NCBI GenBank assembly: GCA_036125855.1
Contig: JAYZTT010000009.1
Coordinates: 7,194 to 71,193, forward strand
Reading direction: 5' to 3'
Source of the DNA: Planctomycetota bacterium
GTDB lineage: Bacteria; Planctomycetota; UBA8108; UBA1146
Length of the DNA: 64,000 bases
The position numbers and the translations under genes were made by a program. A model generated the notes under the pieces. It did not search any database and was not told the origin of the DNA. It saw only the letters and a list, made by a program, of their open reading frames with translations. This document shows, in pieces, positions 33,941-42,183 of this stretch (position 1 is the first letter of the stretch; each line of letters starts with the position of its first letter).

Positions 33941-35566
33941 CTAGCGATTCAGGGGCCAGGGACGGACCTGGGCTCGCAGTGCCCATTGCTGATAGGTCGC
34001 CTGAAGAGCTCTGGTCAGTTGCGGCCTGGTGGCTGCCAGATCGTTCAGTTCGGTTCGATCGGTCACCATGTCGAATAGTTTCCACGGCTGCTTGTGACGC
34101 GCGACCAGCTTCCATCTTCCGAGGCGCATCGCCCGGTTTCCTTCGTGTTCCCAGAAAATCGGGCGGTCGGTGGCCGGTTCTCCGCGCAGTATCGGTAACA
34201 AGCTGATGCCCTCGATCGGCATCAGCGAAACCCCTGCCATCTCTCGAACCGGTTGGGCACCAGCTGCATCGAGACAGGTCGAAACCAGATCGATGACATG
34301 ACCGGGGCCTTCATGAATCACACCCCTGCCTGACAAACCGACCGGCCAGTGCGCGATCAACGGAGAAGCGATTCCTCCTTCATGAACATGGTGCTTGTAG
34401 AGAAGAAATGGCGTGTTGGAGGCGTTCGCCCACGGCAAACCGTAACTCTGATAAGTCACCTCCGGTCCCGGCATCATCTTCGGGTTGTTGCCATTTTTCA
34501 CTTCTCGACCATCCCGGGTCTTCTCCGGAATCGTCAGACTCTTCCAGTTCGAAGTGATCTCCTCGGCACAACCACCATTGTCGGCCAGGAACATCAACAA
34601 GGTGTTCTGCAGACGACCACTCTCCTTCAATGCCTTCACGATTCGACCGATCCCTCGATCGAGTTGTTCGACCTGAGCGGCGTAGACCTCCATCCGCCTC
34701 TCCTGCCACGGATGATTTGGTGTCTGGTCCCAGGCCTTGATCCGAGAATCTCGAGGCGAGAGATCCCAGGCCTCATCGATCAATCCCATTTCACGTAAGC
34801 GTTTGAAGCGCGCTTCTCGCATCGCATCCCACCCGTCTCGATAACGTCCCTCGACCCTCTCGATATCGGCGGGACGAGCGTGGAGCGGCCAGTGAGGAGC
34901 GGTGTAGGACACGTACATGAACATCGGATCTGCGGCTGCCTGTTCGGCATGTTGCTCGATAAATCGCACCGCTTCTTCACTGATGGCATCGGTGTAGTGG
35001 TAGTCACCTTCAGGAGCTGGAAGATAACGGTCCTGGCGGGTCAGGGTGACCGGATCGTAATAGGAACCACCACCATGAATGGTGCCAAAGAAGTGCTGAA
35101 AGCCGCGATCAATCGGCCAGTTGGTACGCTTTTTCGGCTCGATACGTTGCTTCCCCTTACCCTTGTTGCGAGTGACGTGCCACTTGCCTGACATGTAGGT
35201 ATGGTACCCCGCGCCACTCAGGTGTTCGGCGATGGTTGCGGTCTTGCGGGATAGCTCACCTCGATAGCCATCAGATCCGCCGTCGTAATCCATGTGACCG
35301 ACTCCAGCCTGGTGAGCATAGAGACCGGTCAACAGGGAAGCACGCGTCGGACAGCAACGAGCCGTGTTGTAGAACTGGCTCAGTCGAACACCCTCGGCGG
35401 CCAGTGCGTCGAGATGGGGAGTCTTGATCTCGCCGCCATAACAACCGATATCAGACCAACCCATGTCATCGGCCATGATGATGATGAGGTCGGGACGTGG
35501 CGAATCTCCGTACCCAGCAGAAGCAACCACAGAAAGAACCATGACGACGACCACTCGAAATAACAT
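33941..35566 (-). CDS. Arylsulfatase (S1 family)
   Basis: ADDMGWSD, CCPTRASLLTG, GKWH, APHWPL, FLADNG, HEGG. Confidence 0.95.
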   Translation of the reverse strand: MLFRVVVVMVLSVVASAGYGDSPRPDLIIIMADDMGWSDIGCYGGEIKTPHLDALAAEGVRLSQFYNTARCCPTRASLLTGLYAHQAGVGHMDYDGGSDGYRGELSRKTATIAEHLSGAGYHTYMSGKWHVTRNKGKGKQRIEPKKRTNWPIDRGFQHFFGTIHGGGSYYDPVTLTRQDRYLPAPEGDYHYTDAISEEAVRFIEQHAEQAAADPMFMYVSYTAPHWPLHARPADIERVEGRYRDGWDAMREARFKRLREMGLIDEAWDLSPRDSRIKAWDQTPNHPWQERRMEVYAAQVEQLDRGIGRIVKALKESGRLQNTLLMFLADNGGCAEEITSNWKSLTIPEKTRDGREVKNGNNPKMMPGPEVTYQSYGLPWANASNTPFLLYKHHVHEGGIASPLIAHWPVGLSGRGVIHEGPGHVIDLVSTCLDAAGAQPVREMAGVSLMPIEGISLLPILRGEPATDRPIFWEHEGNRAMRLGRWKLVARHKQPWKLFDMVTDRTELNDLAATRPQLTRALQATYQQWALRAQVRPWPLNR

Positions 35567-35588
35567 CAGACCTCCTCTTGTGCCTCGA

Positions 35589-36779
35589 TCATCCCCGAGC
35601 GATCACCTGTTCGATACGGCCAAGTGCCTCATCGAGAATTTCCTCCGTGGTGGCGAAGGAGATTCTCAGATGACCCTCGGCAGCGGGCCCAAACCACTCG
35701 CTCAAACCGGGAACCACGGCGACTCGCGCCTGATCGAGCAGCTTCTGGGCAAGTTCCTGTTCACCGAGGCCGGTCTGTCGGATATCCGGATACAACAGAT
35801 AGGTCCCCTCCGGCGCAGTGCAGGAAAAACCCGCCAGAGCATCGAGGCGCGGAACCGCCATCGCACGCATCATTCGTAGATGATCAAGAAATCCCGCCAG
35901 CCATCGATCGCAGTGCAAGATTGCCGCCTCCGCGGCGATCTGAGACAGCACCGAGGCACCAAAGGTGGTACGGGGAGCTCCCGAGGCGGCCAGAATCTTG
36001 CGGTGCAGGGACTCGTTTCCACTATGGATATAACCGATGCGCAAGCCGGCCAATCCATAGCTCTTGGAGAATCCGGAGATGGTGATGGTACGCTCGGCAA
36101 TCGGCCCGGAAAGGGCCGCGAGACTGGTCATTTCGACCGTGCCGAGGATGATGTCTGACCACACCTCATCATTGATGATGACGAGGTCATGTTCGATGGC
36201 GACTTCACCGATCCGAAGCAACTCATCTGTTCGCAGTACTCGACCGGTAGGGTTATGCGGATTGCAGACCAGGATCGCTCTGGTTCGATCGGTAATCCGC
36301 TGTTCCAGTGCCCCTTCAGGAATCGCCCCGCTGTCTCGCTCAAGGGGGCAACGCACCACCGTGGCGCCAGCTCGTTCAGAACAGTGAGGCAACAAGAAAT
36401 CGACCGGATCAAATGTCAGGGCCTCATCACCGGGAGACAGGACCGCCTGACAGGCTGCCCACAGTGCCGAGGCAGCTCCGTCGGTGGCGAGGACTCGATC
36501 GGCTTCAGCTGTCACCCCACGAGACTTCAGCCTGTTGGCTACCGCCTGACGAAAGCCACTGAATCCTTCCGTCGGGCCGTACCCGAGAACACCATCCGCG
36601 GTGTAGTCCCTGACCGCCTCGCGAATTTTTGGAGCCACCGAAAAATCAGGATCAGCCGCGGTCAGGGGAATCACATCGTCATCGACGGTTGCCCAGCGTA
36701 AATTGAAAGCGCGCTGTCGAAGTAGTTCCTGATCGATGTGAAATCGATCGAAATCTTCGGCGTGAGAGTTTGCGGGCAC
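35589..36779 (-). CDS. PLP-dependent aminotransferase class I/II (MalY/PatB-like C-S lyase possible)
   Basis: DVIPLTAADPDF, CNPHNPTG, NDEVW, SKSYGLAGLRIG, PEGTY, LRISFA. Confidence 0.9.
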   Translation of the reverse strand: MPANSHAEDFDRFHIDQELLRQRAFNLRWATVDDDVIPLTAADPDFSVAPKIREAVRDYTADGVLGYGPTEGFSGFRQAVANRLKSRGVTAEADRVLATDGAASALWAACQAVLSPGDEALTFDPVDFLLPHCSERAGATVVRCPLERDSGAIPEGALEQRITDRTRAILVCNPHNPTGRVLRTDELLRIGEVAIEHDLVIINDEVWSDIILGTVEMTSLAALSGPIAERTITISGFSKSYGLAGLRIGYIHSGNESLHRKILAASGAPRTTFGASVLSQIAAEAAILHCDRWLAGFLDHLRMMRAMAVPRLDALAGFSCTAPEGTYLLYPDIRQTGLGEQELAQKLLDQARVAVVPGLSEWFGPAAEGHLRISFATTEEILDEALGRIEQVIARG

Positions 36780-36812: not shown

Positions 36813-37901
36813 TCAGGAACCGATCGGAACCTCGTGGCGACAACGACGAGAAGCATGCAAGAACTGATGCTGCAGCCGTCGACCCATCTGTAACCGCTCC
36901 TGCAGGACCGGCCGACGAAGTCGTGCGAACCCACCCAGGGCGTGATCCAGCTGCGCTTCATCGGCGAGGTCATGATCATCCAGGATGTCGCCGATGGCGA
37001 GAGCATCCTCGATGGCGGAGCCTGTCCCCTGGCTGGTGAAGGTCAGCAATGGATGAGCCGCATCTCCGATCAACAGGATATTCTTGCGATGGAAGGTGTC
37101 AGGGATTTCACGATCCGTCGTTCGCCACAGATGGACCTGCCGGGCATCGCTTCGAGCAATGACGTCCTGGATCGCAGGCGTCCAGTCGCCCAGTTCATCG
37201 ATTAACCAGCGATGGCGCTTTTCTGGCGTCAGAAATGCCTGAGGCCAACGCCTCGGGTCGAGCTGGACGTACCAGACGATGGAATTGTCCGAGGCGGGAA
37301 CCAGACCGATGGCCATCCCCTGTCCAGGCCGAACCGCTTTCAGAAAACGACCTCGCAGAGTCTCGGGAATCTGGTCACCGTGGCAGATTCCTACCAGTTC
37401 CACTGTACGAACCGGGGACAGAGCTGCCCCGCCAATGTAATTGCGGCGAATCCGGGAACGAACTCCATCGGCGGCGACAAACAGATCCGCCTCGATCGAA
37501 GTCCCATCGCTGAAATGGGCAGCGCGAGCGATTCCTCGCTCGTCTCGTTCAAAACCGACAAAAGTCGTTCCGCAGTGAACTGTGCCTGGAGCCAGAGAAC
37601 TGCCCAGTCCCTCGACCAGATCTGTCCTTCGCACTCCGGAGGTTTGTCGCAAAGGTCGCGACATAACGGATGAGCCGTTTTCATCGAGCATTTCATACTG
37701 TTCGATCGGATGGATTCGAGCGGAAAGATCGACCCCGAGACGTTCCAGAATGTGATGAACTGATGGAGTTAAAAGCAGACCGAAGCCACCGGAAGGGGCA
37801 CCTGACCGGCGCTCCCAGACCGACACGTCATGACCTGACTGCTGTAGTCGCAGTGCAGTGGCCAATCCTGCCGTACTTCCTCCGATGACTGCGATCCGCA
37901 T
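36813..37901 (-). CDS. FAD-dependent monooxygenase
   Basis: MRIAVIGGSTAG Rossmann motif, ADGVRS, LIGDAAH...QG...AIEDA. Confidence 0.9.
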   Translation of the reverse strand: MRIAVIGGSTAGLATALRLQQSGHDVSVWERRSGAPSGGFGLLLTPSVHHILERLGVDLSARIHPIEQYEMLDENGSSVMSRPLRQTSGVRRTDLVEGLGSSLAPGTVHCGTTFVGFERDERGIARAAHFSDGTSIEADLFVAADGVRSRIRRNYIGGAALSPVRTVELVGICHGDQIPETLRGRFLKAVRPGQGMAIGLVPASDNSIVWYVQLDPRRWPQAFLTPEKRHRWLIDELGDWTPAIQDVIARSDARQVHLWRTTDREIPDTFHRKNILLIGDAAHPLLTFTSQGTGSAIEDALAIGDILDDHDLADEAQLDHALGGFARLRRPVLQERLQMGRRLQHQFLHASRRCRHEVPIGS

Positions 37902-38047
37902 GGGCTCACCCTGGCTTCTTTGTCTTGCCTCAGGTTCTCTTTCCATCAGATGAATCCGGAATTGGGAGGGCTCGGGACCATCTGTTCCTGCGGTATATCA
38001 GCGCAAAAGGGCCAATTTTCGCCAAATTGGTGAGTCGAAAGGGGGCT

Positions 38048-38716
38048 TCAGAAACCGACGGATACCGACAGGGTCGGATCTTCCGCTCCCAGCATGATGA
38101 AGGAAAAACTGAACTGGTTGCTGCGCCATGTCACCAGAGGATGGAGATCATCCCCGTCATAAATCAACGTCGCCTCCAGGTCAGGAGCGATGCCGTACCG
38201 GAGACTGGCGGGGATCCGCCACTCGGAATTATCAGGGATATAGGCCAGACTCAAAGAACCACTCAGCCGGGGTCCAAGTACCTGCGCTGCTGTCACGGAA
38301 AACGCATTGCCATCGACCTCGTCTGAAGGCCATGCGGAACTGGTACCCAACACCACGGCCGGATGATCCTCCGTGGCATCCAGGATTCGATAGTTCACCA
38401 ACGGATAGTATTCGTTGGAATCAACTCCCACTTCGATGCCCACCTGAAGGTCTTCTCGAAGGCGATGCACCAGACTCACTTCGAGAGGCTCTCGATTGGT
38501 CTCTTCCGTCAATATGGTACGGGTGGTGAAGTTCCAGCCGCCCTGCTGCATCTCTCCTGCACCCCAGACCGAGGCGCCTTCTCCTGGTCAGCCGACTCAC
38601 ATCGGAACAGCAGGACCACGTGCCAGAAAACTGTCATCGAGGCTGGCACAGCCCGCTCCCAGCAATAGAAGCAAAAGAAAAAGAAGTGGCGAAAGGAAGT
38701 GGCTGCTCATGTTCAT
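38048..38716 (-). CDS. Candidate selenoprotein with UxxU motif; secreted, beta-barrel-like (222 aa with two TGA read-throughs)
   Basis: ATG 38716 gives a signal peptide ending GAGC, in frame with the 38551 ORF through TGA at 38599-38597 and 38590-38588; SECIS-like hairpin follows; C-terminus SVSVGF. Confidence 0.72.
38559..38577 (-). promoter_or_regulatory. Putative bacterial SECIS element
   Basis: mRNA GCGCCUC-GGUCU-GGGGUGC hairpin; stem begins 10 nt and loop 17 nt after the second UGA. Confidence 0.65.
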
Positions 38717-38897
38717 GGCTAGAGTTTATCCCTTCGGAGTCAAAATCTACCGGAAATAATTCATCTCGTCAAAAAGAAGCCGACTAGCACACCATTTGCC
38801 CGTTGACCGCTCTGTAGCGCCCTCTACCCTGATGGTCGTGGATTGAGGTCTCAATCAACAGAAAATGATTGTTCTTTTCAGGTGGATGGATTTCAAA

Positions 38898-39659
38898 ATG
38901 ACCCAGGATTTTTCACTGGAGGGGCGTACCGCTCTGGTTACCGGTTCCAGTACCGGACTTGGCAAGGCGATGGCCCACTCACTCGGAGCCGCTGGTGCCC
39001 GTGTCGCCATCAACTACCAGAATAATGTCGAACGTGCCGAACAGACCCTGGCCGGTTTCCAGGATGCTGGTCACGAAGGTGCATTGTTTCGAGGCGACGT
39101 CACCGACGAGGCCGAAGTGAACCGACTGTGTGCCGAGATCTCGGAGACCCTCGGTCCCATCGATATCCTGGTCGTGAACGCCACCCCGGCCCAACCACTC
39201 AAGCCGATCGAGGAGTACGACTGGGAATTTTACCAGTCGATGATCGACTTCTTCATCAAGAGTCCGTACCTGTTGGCGCGAGCCACGCTTGCCCACATGA
39301 AGAGTCAGAAGTGGGGGAGGATCATCAACATCGCCAGCGAGGTTTATACCCGCGGGCTCTCCCCCTTCAGTGCCTATGTCGCGGCCAAGGGTGGCCAGAT
39401 AGGCTGGACCCGCAGCATGGCCAACGAACTGGCCCCCGACGGCATCACCGTCAACGCCATCGCTCCCGGCTGGATACCGGTCGAGCGTCATGAAAACGAC
39501 CCGGAAGAGGAGAAGCAGGCCTACCTGGACGTCATTCCGATGCAGCGCTGGGGAGTCCCATCCGATGTCGGAGGAGCTGCGGTATTTCTTGCCAGCGATT
39601 CCGCTGGTTTCATCACCGGACAGAACATCCATGTCAATGGCGGCGTATGTCTGCCCTAA
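38898..39659 (+). CDS. SDR family oxidoreductase (FabG-like)
   Basis: TGSSTGLG, GRIINIAS, YVAAK, VNAIAPG, ITGQ. Confidence 0.93.
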   Translation: MTQDFSLEGRTALVTGSSTGLGKAMAHSLGAAGARVAINYQNNVERAEQTLAGFQDAGHEGALFRGDVTDEAEVNRLCAEISETLGPIDILVVNATPAQPLKPIEEYDWEFYQSMIDFFIKSPYLLARATLAHMKSQKWGRIINIASEVYTRGLSPFSAYVAAKGGQIGWTRSMANELAPDGITVNAIAPGWIPVERHENDPEEEKQAYLDVIPMQRWGVPSDVGGAAVFLASDSAGFITGQNIHVNGGVCLP

Positions 39660-39682
39660 ACCAATCGTTGAGGAGACCTACC

Positions 39683-40687
39683 ATGAGAACTTCGATCGCC
39701 ATCATCTGCCTGCTGCTTTCGTCCCTGGTCGGCTGCACCGCCAAGGTAGAAAATTCAGCGACAGCCGCACCCAGGCTCGCTTTCGTCACCAATGGAGTCG
39801 CTGATTTCTGGGTTCTCGCCGGAAAAGGGGTGGAAGACACCGCCTCCGATATCGGTGTCGATGCGTCCTTCCACATGCCGCCCGATGGACTGGCCGATCA
39901 AAAGCGCATCATCGAGGACTTGATGGTCAAGGGTGTCGATGGAATCGCTGTCAGTCCCATCGACCCGGCCAATCAAACACCTTTCCTCGACCGCATCGCC
40001 GGCCAGACTCTGCTGATCACTCATGATTCAGACGCTCCCGGCTCGCAACGGATCTGCTTCGTCGGGGTCGATAATTACGAAGCGGGCAGGATGTGCGGAG
40101 AACTGGTCCAGGAGGCGCTACCCGATGGCGGCAAGGTCGCCATCTTCGTCGGTCGCCTCGAACAGGATAATGCGCGTCTTCGTCGCCAGGGTGTGATCGA
40201 TCAGATGCTCGGCAGATCCTGGGATTCGAGCCGCCATGACAAACCGGGAAAGGTGGTCTCCGGTAACGGCTTCGAGGTGGTGGCCACTCTCACAGACCAG
40301 TTCGACATGGCCAAGGGCAAGGCCAATGTCGAGGATATCCTTTCGCGCCATGATGATATCGCCGGCTGCATCGGACTGTTTGCCTATAACACTCCACTGA
40401 TCCTCGAAGCACTGGAACAGTCGGGCCGGATCGGCAAGGTCCAGGTGATCAGCTTTGATGAAGATGAGCGCACTCTGCAGGGAATCATCGATGGCACTGT
40501 TCACGGCACCATCGTGCAGAATCCCTATGAATACGGTGCCACCTCGATGCGCCTGTTGAAAGCGCTGGCGGCAGGAGATCGTTCAGGAATTCCTGCCAAC
40601 GGAATTCTCAAGGTTCCGGCCCGCATCATCCGCAAACAGGAAGTCGAATCATTCCGTCGGGACATGCACAAGAAACTGGGAAAGTGA
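39683..40687 (+). CDS. Sugar ABC transporter substrate-binding lipoprotein (RbsB-like)
   Basis: LVGC lipobox; GVDGIAVSP, GVDNYEAG, SFDE, VQNPYEYG. Confidence 0.92.
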   Translation: MRTSIAIICLLLSSLVGCTAKVENSATAAPRLAFVTNGVADFWVLAGKGVEDTASDIGVDASFHMPPDGLADQKRIIEDLMVKGVDGIAVSPIDPANQTPFLDRIAGQTLLITHDSDAPGSQRICFVGVDNYEAGRMCGELVQEALPDGGKVAIFVGRLEQDNARLRRQGVIDQMLGRSWDSSRHDKPGKVVSGNGFEVVATLTDQFDMAKGKANVEDILSRHDDIAGCIGLFAYNTPLILEALEQSGRIGKVQVISFDEDERTLQGIIDGTVHGTIVQNPYEYGATSMRLLKALAAGDRSGIPANGILKVPARIIRKQEVESFRRDMHKKLGK

Positions 40688-42183
40688 ACCGATCGCAGGG
40701 GGTCATCGAAGCACGGTCCGTTTCCAAGCGGTTCGGTGGCGTCGTGGCCCTCGACTCGGTTTCGCTGGCCATCGAACCCGGCGAGATCGTCGCCGTCATC
40801 GGTGAAAACGGTGCCGGGAAGAGTACCCTTGCGAAGATCCTGTGTGGGGTTCACCAGGCGGATGACGGCCAGGTCGTCATCGATGGAACCCCGGTCCTGT
40901 TGACCGGCCCCGCAGATGCCTTTGCTCACGGAATCGCCCGCATTCCCCAGGAACTACAGCTGTGCGATACGATGACCGTGGCGGAGAATCTGCTGCTGGG
41001 TCGAGAACCGGTCGGTCGCTATCGACTCATCGACAACAACGCCTGTCGTCTCCAGGCACAAAGTGCTCTCGAAAAAGTAGCTCTGCACGTGGACCTCGAC
41101 ATCCCGGTCAGTGAACTGGGCCATGGTCAGAGGCAACTGGTCGCCATCGCACGGGCTCTCGATGGTCAGGCGCGAACCCTGCTTCTCGATGAACCCACCG
41201 CCACTCTTTCTCCAGCGGAAACAAAAATACTCCTCGATCGTATCCTGACGATGAAAAACTCGGGAGCCGCCATCGTCCTGATCACCCATCGGCTCGGCGA
41301 GGTGGTACAGATCGCTGACCGCGTGGTAGTACTTCGCGATGGCCATCATGTCGCGACTCTCGAAAGCGATCAGATCGACCGTGATGAGATGGTACGGCAG
41401 ATGGTGGGGCGAGATCTGGACCCTCCGGTCCGCGAAACCGATCCAGCCGGGTCGGTACGCCTGGCGGTGAATGGCCTGCGCAGCAGCCACCATCCCGAAC
41501 CGATCCACTTCGAGGTGAATGCCGGAGAGCGGGTTGCTCTGGCAGGACTGGTCGGCGCCGGTAGGAGCGAGCTGCTGGAGGCGCTCTTTGGCTTGCGAGA
41601 ACGCCAGGGACAGGTCCAGATCGACCAGAAACCGCTCCCAGCCTCGAACCCCGGCCTGTGCGTCGAGGCCGGGCTAGCTCTGGTTCCCGAAGAACGAGCG
41701 GCTCAGGGGCTGGCCCTGCAACGGACCGTCGCCGAGAACGCGATGCTACCGGGTTTGCATCGAGAAGCCGGCACCGGAGGCTGGCTACCGAAGGGTGCTG
41801 GTGAGAACACCGCCAACGAGCTGGTAGAGCGCCTCGATGTCCGTCCGGGCCGTACCGACATCGCCGCCGGAGATCTATCGGGAGGAAACCAGCAGAAGGT
41901 CGTGATCGGAAAGTGGCTTGCGCTCGATCCGAGCATCTTGCTGCTCGATGAACCGACCCGAGGAGTCGATGTCGGTGCTCGCGAGGAGATTCACCAGCGG
42001 CTGCACGAGCTCTCTGCTCAAGGGGTCGCCATCCTGTTTGCCTCGAGTGAGATGGAGGAGGTACTGGCACTGTCTCACCGCATCATCGTGATGCACGAAG
42101 GACGGGTCACGGGTACCCTCAGCAGCAGCGAAACCACCGAGGAACAGATCCTGGCACTGGCCACCGGAGGGAACGTGGCATGA
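40684..42183 (+). CDS. Sugar ABC transporter ATP-binding protein (CUT2)
   Basis: GENGAGKST, LLDEPT twice, GLVGAGRSE, LSGGNQQKV. Confidence 0.95.
   Translation: MNRSQGVIEARSVSKRFGGVVALDSVSLAIEPGEIVAVIGENGAGKSTLAKILCGVHQADDGQVVIDGTPVLLTGPADAFAHGIARIPQELQLCDTMTVAENLLLGREPVGRYRLIDNNACRLQAQSALEKVALHVDLDIPVSELGHGQRQLVAIARALDGQARTLLLDEPTATLSPAETKILLDRILTMKNSGAAIVLITHRLGEVVQIADRVVVLRDGHHVATLESDQIDRDEMVRQMVGRDLDPPVRETDPAGSVRLAVNGLRSSHHPEPIHFEVNAGERVALAGLVGAGRSELLEALFGLRERQGQVQIDQKPLPASNPGLCVEAGLALVPEERAAQGLALQRTVAENAMLPGLHREAGTGGWLPKGAGENTANELVERLDVRPGRTDIAAGDLSGGNQQKVVIGKWLALDPSILLLDEPTRGVDVGAREEIHQRLHELSAQGVAILFASSEMEEVLALSHRIIVMHEGRVTGTLSSSETTEEQILALATGGNVA

Follow-up and report, generated by a model that had tools for sequence, protein, structure and literature searches.

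The DNA examined here, a window of 64,000 nucleotides from a Planctomycetota bacterium (positions 7194-71193 of contig C9, JAYZTT010000009.1, in the source assembly G000, GCA_036125855.1, which comprises 2.81 Mb in 29 contigs and is 79% complete), carries on its minus strand at 38716..38048 what we judge, with a probability of about 85%, to be a single gene for an exported protein of 222 amino acids containing two selenocysteines (Sec, U), U40 and U43. The reading frame starts with ATG at 38716-38714 and, apart from in-frame TGAs at 38599-38597 (codon 40) and 38590-38588 (codon 43), is open to a terminal TGA at 38050-38048. A list of open reading frames (ORFs) under genetic code table 11 shows only 38048..38551 on this strand (167 amino acids); an earlier interpretation made from the letters alone (hereafter the sequence-only reading) had followed the same frame upstream through both TGAs to the ATG, and its coordinates were confirmed. 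The read-through product, identical to the one written out in the sequence-only reading, would consist of a hydrophobic leader ending in LLLGAGC, followed by PM-U-VG-U-PGEG, and a C-terminal part ending in SVSVGF. Full-length homologs of the whole gene occur in 14 further genomes within the same family, and the proposal that an exported, non-thioredoxin protein is made by way of two Sec codons is supported by the Sec machinery of the genome, the conservation of both UGAs, the coding signal across them, a hairpin downstream, and homologs with cysteine at the same positions. All features by which bacterial selenoproteins are recognized computationally thus appear to be present, and recoding is well supported by computation; what is proposed below on function draws on relatives only.

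The gene is real and is mis-annotated in all public records found. Gene calls were cut to 131-172 amino acids in all 20 database matches, and the public protein records found, all of them N-terminally truncated (111-172 amino acids) and, where named, titled "hypothetical protein [Planctomycetota bacterium]", lack the signal peptide as well as the sole probable active site. Re-annotation would change the predicted location and chemistry of the protein.

Multisequence comparison of 24 distinct 72-nucleotide windows from homologous loci indicates that translation runs straight across both TGAs. In the codons of the PGEGASVWGA block that follows the second TGA, entropy is 0.025 at codon position 2 versus 0.93 at position 3; upstream of the first TGA the P-M codons are likewise conserved, with wobble variation; and at the amino-acid level conservation is strongest right at the TGAs, between them and on either side. 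At the annotated start, 38551, only 3 of the 24 windows have ATG, the codon otherwise encoding Ile, Val, Leu or Ser, so that the homologs do not start at the equivalent of this position; a start there was what the sequence-only reading had named as counting against it. A product starting there, at Met56, would be left without a signal peptide.

All 24 windows have TGA at both sites. The gene is held by 15 of 61 related genomes, all of one family (14 of 27 besides the source genome), and two TGAs are present in each of the 15 main matches at identities of 53-99%. Among 23 metagenome loci, with identities down to 41%, 20 have both TGAs, one starts at the second TGA, and two stop short of the site. 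An even sample of the phylum contained the gene in 16 of 401 genomes, belonging to six families, with two TGAs in 17 of 18 matches and one TGA in the remaining match, a tandem paralog reading F-V-P-M-U-L-G-C-P-G-E (TGA, then TGT). A more distant subfamily with the motif V-P-S-U-P-V/L-U-P-G-E-G keeps both TGAs in five loci. Common to the translations from the 15 related genomes is the same plan, a hydrophobic leader ending in G/S-C, a variable linker, and the block V-P-M-U-x-G-U-P-G-E-G-A-S-V-W-G. At locus L075 (G344:C13, near positions 1516 and 2210) tandem copies in one genome read U-P-G-U and U-L-G-C (TGT), and the pair shows a natural exchange of Sec for Cys at the second position that followed duplication. 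A further database protein, P0033 (209 amino acids), prints P-A-C-V-G-W-P-G-E-G; the W may stand for a TGA called under genetic code table 4, in which case P0033 may be a C-x-x-U form.

The possibility that the TGAs are assembly errors, raised in the sequence-only reading, is refuted by contigs of four sequencing runs from four different studies, which span 38588-38599 and for which no difference is listed there. All or part of the stretch is present in 20 sequencing runs from nine studies, and the family is widespread in seawater metagenomes; no RNA run is listed among the runs holding the stretch. In two of the runs (X2 and X6) extra contigs of 157 and 195 nucleotides match only a 45-nucleotide stretch within 38555-38601, with four differences, and then diverge on both sides. 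Among co-occurring relatives, conservation of DNA within the gene is highest in the block made up of the motif and the downstream hairpin. A scan of genome contigs with the read-through protein (P0001) gave no relative; the search of related genomes did find relatives.

The genome encodes the complete machinery for which the sequence-only reading had proposed to look. The genes selA and selD and the tRNA-Sec gene (67.9 bits; SeC with anticodon tca according to ARAGORN) lie side by side on contig C1 at 253366-255791, and selB is on contig C2. Neither selA nor selB has internal stops, and selD, with one in-frame TGA, itself encodes a selenoprotein (CAG-U-AAKL). A further gene with a single in-frame TGA is fdhA, for the formate dehydrogenase alpha subunit (C27:2719-5619; TIGR01591, 782 bits; NCSRG-U-HSPTVAG). 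SelA was found in 14 of the 15 related genomes that hold the gene, and the fifteenth has SelB.

Downstream of the second UGA lies a hairpin of the bacterial selenocysteine insertion sequence (SECIS) type at 38559..38577 on the minus strand, with the 5' arm GCGCCUC (38577-38571), the loop GGUCU (38570-38566) and the 3' arm GGGGUGC (38565-38559). This 7-bp hairpin, which overlies the codons for G-A-S-V-W-G-A, was found unaided by RNAalifold, and its loop starts 17 nucleotides after UGA2 and 26 nucleotides after UGA1. Across the 24 distinct sequences pairing amounts to 98.2% of 168 cells, versus 26-57% when the 3' partner is slid by one to three columns, and neither the pairing nor the covariation score was reached by any of 500 shuffles. 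One pair changes on both sides (CG in 11 sequences, AU in 6, UG in 4, GU in 1, broken in 2), with the Gly wobble base tracking an Ala/Ser change, and two pairs vary on one side only. The loops read GGUCU in 16 sequences, AGUCU in 2, AGUUU in 2, GAUCU in 1 and CGUGC in 3, so that G stands at loop position 1 or 2 in all 24, which is the bacterial SECIS consensus for the apical loop given in PMC13582414.

The selenoprotein genes of the same genome serve as calibrators. In selD an 8-bp stem with the loop GGUCG lies 26 nucleotides after the UGA, in fdhA a 7-bp stem with the loop GGUCU lies 18 nucleotides downstream of the TGA; both spacings needed here are already used in this organism. The loop of the U-x-G-C paralog is again 26 nucleotides after the sole UGA. 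A genome-wide scan for hairpins of at least 6 bp with a GGUCN loop returned 122 on both strands of the 2.81 Mb, and those lying behind an in-frame TGA with long open frames to either side include selD and fdhA, the other candidates being Arg-rich nonsense. By our own arithmetic the chance of a GGUCN hairpin starting 14-32 nucleotides after a given TGA is about 4e-4. In the more distant subfamily the hairpin is shifted (GGUCC-GUG-GGACC), with flanking pairs that vary from sequence to sequence and two compensatory pairs (n = 5); it is 85% paired, and 29 of 500 shuffles reach its covariation score, which makes the covariation there suggestive only.

According to the mechanism that we propose, both UGAs would be recoded by the SelB/tRNA-Sec system of the organism, and the single hairpin within the coding sequence would serve the ribosome twice as it advances by nine nucleotides. 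That one hairpin could serve both UGAs is plausible because selD uses a spacing of 26 and fdhA one of 18 nucleotides. The product would then be cut at a lipobox and anchored by Cys23, and after a short variable linker the invariant V-P-M-U-x-G-U-P-G-E-G-A-S-V-W-G site would lie at the entrance of a beta-rich domain of ~165 amino acids belonging to no named family. The gene would thereby offer a natural test case for one bacterial SECIS element serving two UGAs nine nucleotides apart, for which the same genome supplies single-UGA calibrators at both spacings and a tandem paralog a natural U-x-x-C variant.

A profile search of 1.84 billion representative sequences gave 74 matches, and these include full-length distant homologs with cysteine at both positions, reading P-T-C-A-G-C-A-G-E-A in P0046, P0060-P0063, P0077 and P0088 and G-C-P-L-C-P-G-G-G in P0070; Cys/Cys forms occur also in 18 genome loci (L052-L069). 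Alignment of the Sec-type with the Cys-type profile by hhalign (probability 99.5%, E 1.9e-22, 206 columns) places the U columns on the C columns. The homology comparison suggested in the sequence-only reading was thereby borne out, with TGA kept in relatives and Cys aligned in distant homologs at positions 40 (UGA1, 38597..38599, minus strand) and 43 (UGA2, 38588..38590, minus strand). A quick tree built from 57 rows whose motif state is known (31 UU, 1 UC, 25 CC) separates the Cys forms as one clade, Armatimonadota by record titles, from the Sec forms, which make up two Planctomycetota clades, and groups the UC copy with the UU copy from its own genome. Under the titles Methyloversatilis and Synechococcus there are records with Cys-type genes near-identical to those of Armatimonadota (L063 versus L065, L067 versus L062; branches of ~0.01-0.06), which looks like mis-binned contigs rather than gene transfer.

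The upstream extension supplies the signal peptide that the sequence-only reading had expected of it. Residues 1-22 form a predicted signal peptide that, with the lipobox L-G-A-G-C, spans 38648..38716 on the minus strand; Cys23 (38650-38648) would be the lipid-bearing residue with which the mature protein begins. In all 13 aligned full-length sequences G22 and C23 are unchanged, the remaining leader varies, and the lipobox Cys stands 12-37 residues before the first U. A lipobox pattern of the PROSITE type fits 24 of 36 distinct Sec-type N-termini; among the 12 misses are distant clades whose signal peptides are of the ordinary kind, so that export is general whereas the predicted lipid anchor is clade-specific and belongs to the clade of the gene described here. 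The lipidation of Cys23 is a prediction from sequence. Since the mature protein has no Cys besides C23, the only partner open to either Sec residue would be the other one or a ligand.

The C-terminal part of the protein, approximately residues 58-222 (38051..38545, minus strand), is a conserved beta-rich domain with an invariant GTSSAWPS block and a terminal Phe. Its alternating-hydrophobicity score is 0.80, versus 0.38 for residues 1-59, and 26 of 33 complete sequences end in F, the others in Q, E, D or P; alternation and terminal Phe fit an outer-membrane barrel and also a soluble beta-sandwich. No Pfam family was matched by P0001 at E <= 1, which includes thioredoxin/AhpC-TSA-type domains and YHS, and with U read as C it matched 0 NCBIfam families at E <= 1, which includes NF041115; a profile search of the PDB gave only two antibody chains (E 0.83). 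Look-alikes in the ESM-Atlas of two database homologs fall in clusters of the outer-membrane-barrel type with feature scores of 0.95-0.97. In size and in its beta-rich alternating pattern the domain is alike to the small outer-membrane beta-barrels DUF5777, DUF3570 and YjbH/BcsS, and a significant profile match to a curated barrel family (DUF5777, DUF3570, YjbH) was not obtained. DUF5777 was rejected on faint matches in 3 of 46 members (best E 0.025) and a hidden Markov model that finds nothing in the genome at E <= 10, and DUF3570 on an hhalign probability of 0.3% against the proteins of relatives. The outer-membrane barrel fold is a lead from sequence features.

Several points weigh against the proposal of a double-Sec protein. 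The case is made from DNA and sequence comparison, and the sequences compared are kin, so the counts overstate independence. SelA occurs in 58 of the 61 relatives, which makes its co-occurrence with the gene uninformative, and one holder of the gene, G008 (82% complete), has SelB, with no SelA, SelD or tRNA-Sec found. As to the hairpin, three of its pairs are invariant and one more departs by a single unpaired cell only, the single-sequence fold of 38530-38602 is no more stable than shuffles (z = +0.80), and an Rfam search of 37500-39500 at E <= 10 gave three chance snoRNA-like matches and no SECIS family. Cys-type windows of equal GC content fold about as stably as Sec-type windows (minimum free energy -15.7 versus -14.6), and for this reason stability was dropped as an argument for SECIS. 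Stems of at least 6 bp occur in 11 of 18 Cys-type windows versus 29 of 29 Sec-type windows. The comparison at the level of the alignment does discriminate: in the 18 Cys-type genes no consensus hairpin follows the second Cys codon. What supports a SECIS element is its position, its conservation, one covarying pair, and its resemblance to the genome's own SECIS elements.

The most serious rival is that recoding is SECIS-dependent but that Cys is inserted at one or both UGAs, by a SelC*-like tRNA (tRNA-ReC) or a Cys-charged tRNA-Sec, giving a C-x-x-C or mixed product. According to PMC13582414, tRNA-ReC can decode UGA as Cys with a SECIS downstream, and tRNA-ReC-like genes occur in ~56% of genomes with UXXU hydrogenases versus ~2.3% of other Sec-type genomes; moreover, Cys works at both positions in relatives of the protein described here. 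In the source assembly, itself 79% complete, ARAGORN finds 29 tRNAs, among which are one tRNA-SeC (98 nucleotides, tca) and one ordinary tRNA-Cys of 74 nucleotides, and the seven next-best matches to the tRNA-Sec model are Ser, Leu, Tyr and Gly tRNAs; no tRNA-ReC-like gene was found in it. Cys could be encoded more cheaply by TGT or TGC, yet TGA stands at both sites in 24 of 24 windows. We therefore regard Cys insertion as improbable, although it retains more weight than any other alternative.

Sec insertion competes with release factor RF2, and the two UGAs might accordingly act as a selenium-dependent gate that only some ribosomes pass, releasing a lipopeptide of 39-42 amino acids, with the full-length protein a minor product. 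Recoding at one UGA in E. coli is put at 30-40% in the abstract of PMC4513850, and two sites would multiply the loss. The downstream domain of 165 amino acids is, however, under strong purifying selection in the same frame and is homologous to full-length Cys proteins, which indicates that the full-length product is the one selected, and partial passage concerns the yield rather than the identity of the gene. A gate of this kind as the main role of the UGAs appears marginally less probable even than Cys insertion.

If the TGAs were true stops, translation would start at ATG 38551 with a separate ORF of 39 codons upstream, or the locus would be a pseudogene. The products of 131-172 amino acids called in 20 of 20 database matches speak for this explanation, as does a hairpin that is not thermodynamically exceptional; it is contradicted by the rarity of ATG at 38551, by conservation that is highest around the TGAs, by the lack of a signal peptide in the Met56 product, and by Cys homologs that are continuous through the site, and in a pseudogene two TGAs and an open frame would not have survived down to ~41% identity across six families of the phylum. 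On these comparisons we consider true stops very improbable. A genome-wide alternative code in which TGA is read as sense, for which nothing speaks beyond the two in-frame TGAs, is likewise contradicted and hardly credible, the gene ending at TGA in 10 of 14 homologs (TAA in 4), selA and selB having no internal stops, selD and fdhA having one TGA each at the known Sec position, and the W printed at both U positions in protein record P0029 being the choice of the gene caller, as the matching DNA locus L042 has TGA there.

SelL is a thioredoxin-fold UxxU protein of aquatic animals, and a UxxU motif can form a diselenide. The double-Sec protein proposed here differs from SelL, which has a thioredoxin-like domain and a SECIS element in the 3' untranslated region, in that no such domain is detected by Pfam or NCBIfam models, and in having an in-frame SECIS and the features of an exported lipoprotein. 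The sequence-only reading knew UxxU chiefly from SelL; the motif is not confined to it. Table 1 of a 2026 review (PMC13188914), which gives 119 prokaryotic selenoprotein families, almost all with a Pfam, TIGRFAM, NCBIfam or CDD identifier, includes three UxxU families, a Prx-like thiol:disulfide oxidoreductase (PF00578), the metal-binding NF041115 and an FmdB-family protein (TIGR02605); UXXU-type Group 4 [NiFeSe] hydrogenases were added in 2026 by PMC13582414, which also proposes one SECIS for two UGAs. With these prokaryotic UxxU proteins the present one shares UGAs three codons apart in place of CxxC, a SECIS downstream of the second UGA, and Cys relatives; it differs in being a predicted exported lipoprotein with a beta-rich domain, where they have a thioredoxin fold, an HMA-like domain, a zinc ribbon or a hydrogenase. 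As P0001 has no Pfam or NCBIfam match at E <= 1, it belongs to none of the recorded UxxU families.

Selenium in outer-membrane beta-barrels is itself on record, the review table listing the GSU2204 family MtrB/PioB-type outer-membrane beta-barrel (NF041027) and the FCYXU-type TonB-dependent receptor (NF049945), but each has one Sec, both are large barrels of other families, and neither has an NCBIfam link to P0001. No family in the 119-family table corresponds to the protein, nothing of the kind is mentioned in the text available from the BSepDB, deep-Sep and GOS papers, and the literature on selenoprotein families yielded no description of it, supplementary family lists (e.g., BSepDB) lying outside the search. 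The statement of the sequence-only reading that this was a type it did not recognize as described holds up among the tabled families, Pfam and NCBIfam. By comparison with published tables and curated models, the protein is a predicted new selenoprotein family. It would add to the known selenoproteins a family matching none of the curated models, with two selenocysteines placed outside the cytoplasm on a lipoprotein.

Clues to function come from the Cys-type relatives, unnamed Armatimonadota proteins of YHS-CxxC-beta architecture. These share with the Sec type a chalcogen pair preceding the same beta domain, x-G between its members and G-E after it, and differ in having Cys rather than Sec and in forming a separate clade. 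In addition, two or three YHS domains are fused in front of their C-x-G-C beta domain, with a separate adjacent YHS protein instead of the fusion in L062 and L067, and in 11 of 18 Cys-type loci a gene overlapping the 3' end encodes an exported thioredoxin-fold protein with W-C-T-T-C, closest to the ResA, TlpA and DsbE models at scores below their cut-offs. YHS/TRASH domains are metal-binding modules, and in the periplasm copper proteins have their Cys pairs maintained in the reduced state by reductases of the TlpA type. Because the Cys-type relatives have YHS fusions and a ResA/TlpA-like neighbor, the pair would be a soft-metal/redox site, most likely an extracytoplasmic site for soft-metal binding and/or dithiol-diselenide redox chemistry.

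Three findings count against this functional assignment: 12 of 36 N-termini lack the lipobox, tblastn found no YHS or thioredoxin gene beside the Sec-type genes in the loci examined, and no neighbor is common to all Sec-type loci, a short-chain dehydrogenase/reductase (SDR) gene being present in 11 of 20 and a flavin adenine dinucleotide (FAD) monooxygenase gene in 7 of 20. The neighbors of the Sec type follow relatedness only. The absence of helper genes fits, without showing, a replacement of the YHS/TlpA-like helpers by selenium, in which case the Sec version would need no dedicated reductase encoded next to it; from the difference in companions between the Sec and Cys types comes a concrete, testable hypothesis on the benefit that selenium brings in the oxidizing envelope. 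Put together, and offered tentatively as a picture likelier to fail in one of its parts than to hold as a whole, this may be an unrecorded exported double-Sec family of marine Planctomycetota, made with one SECIS at two spacings, in which an extracytoplasmic U-x-x-U selenolate/diselenide site, lying where a small beta domain associated with the outer membrane opens, captures or passes on soft metals such as Cu(I) or Hg(II), and the two seleniums replace the YHS domain and the TlpA-like reductase of Cys-type ancestors.

In the window the gene is followed on the same strand by an FAD-dependent monooxygenase-like gene (36813-37946) and is preceded by a divergent SDR gene (38865-39659). In the same-genus genome G003 (91% complete; L082, C8) the monooxygenase and SDR genes stand ~250 bp apart and the selenoprotein gene is absent, and in G001, also of the genus (L083, C146), the gene is absent at the syntenic site, where only short monooxygenase fragments lie beside the SDR gene; absence at a syntenic site within the genus marks it as an accessory gene.

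No terminator-like site was found at the gene. A promoter-like TTGACG-17-TAGATT at 38744..38772 on the minus strand, 28 nucleotides upstream of the ATG, comes from a consensus scan of the region that gave two sites versus 0.6 expected from shuffles and is weak evidence for a promoter. Farther from the gene, 33941-36779 holds genes for a sulfatase (541 amino acids) and a class I/II aminotransferase (396 amino acids), and past the SDR gene, at 39647-42183, lie genes for a periplasmic sugar-type binding protein (346 amino acids) and then an ATP-binding cassette (ABC) ATPase with two cassettes (499 amino acids).

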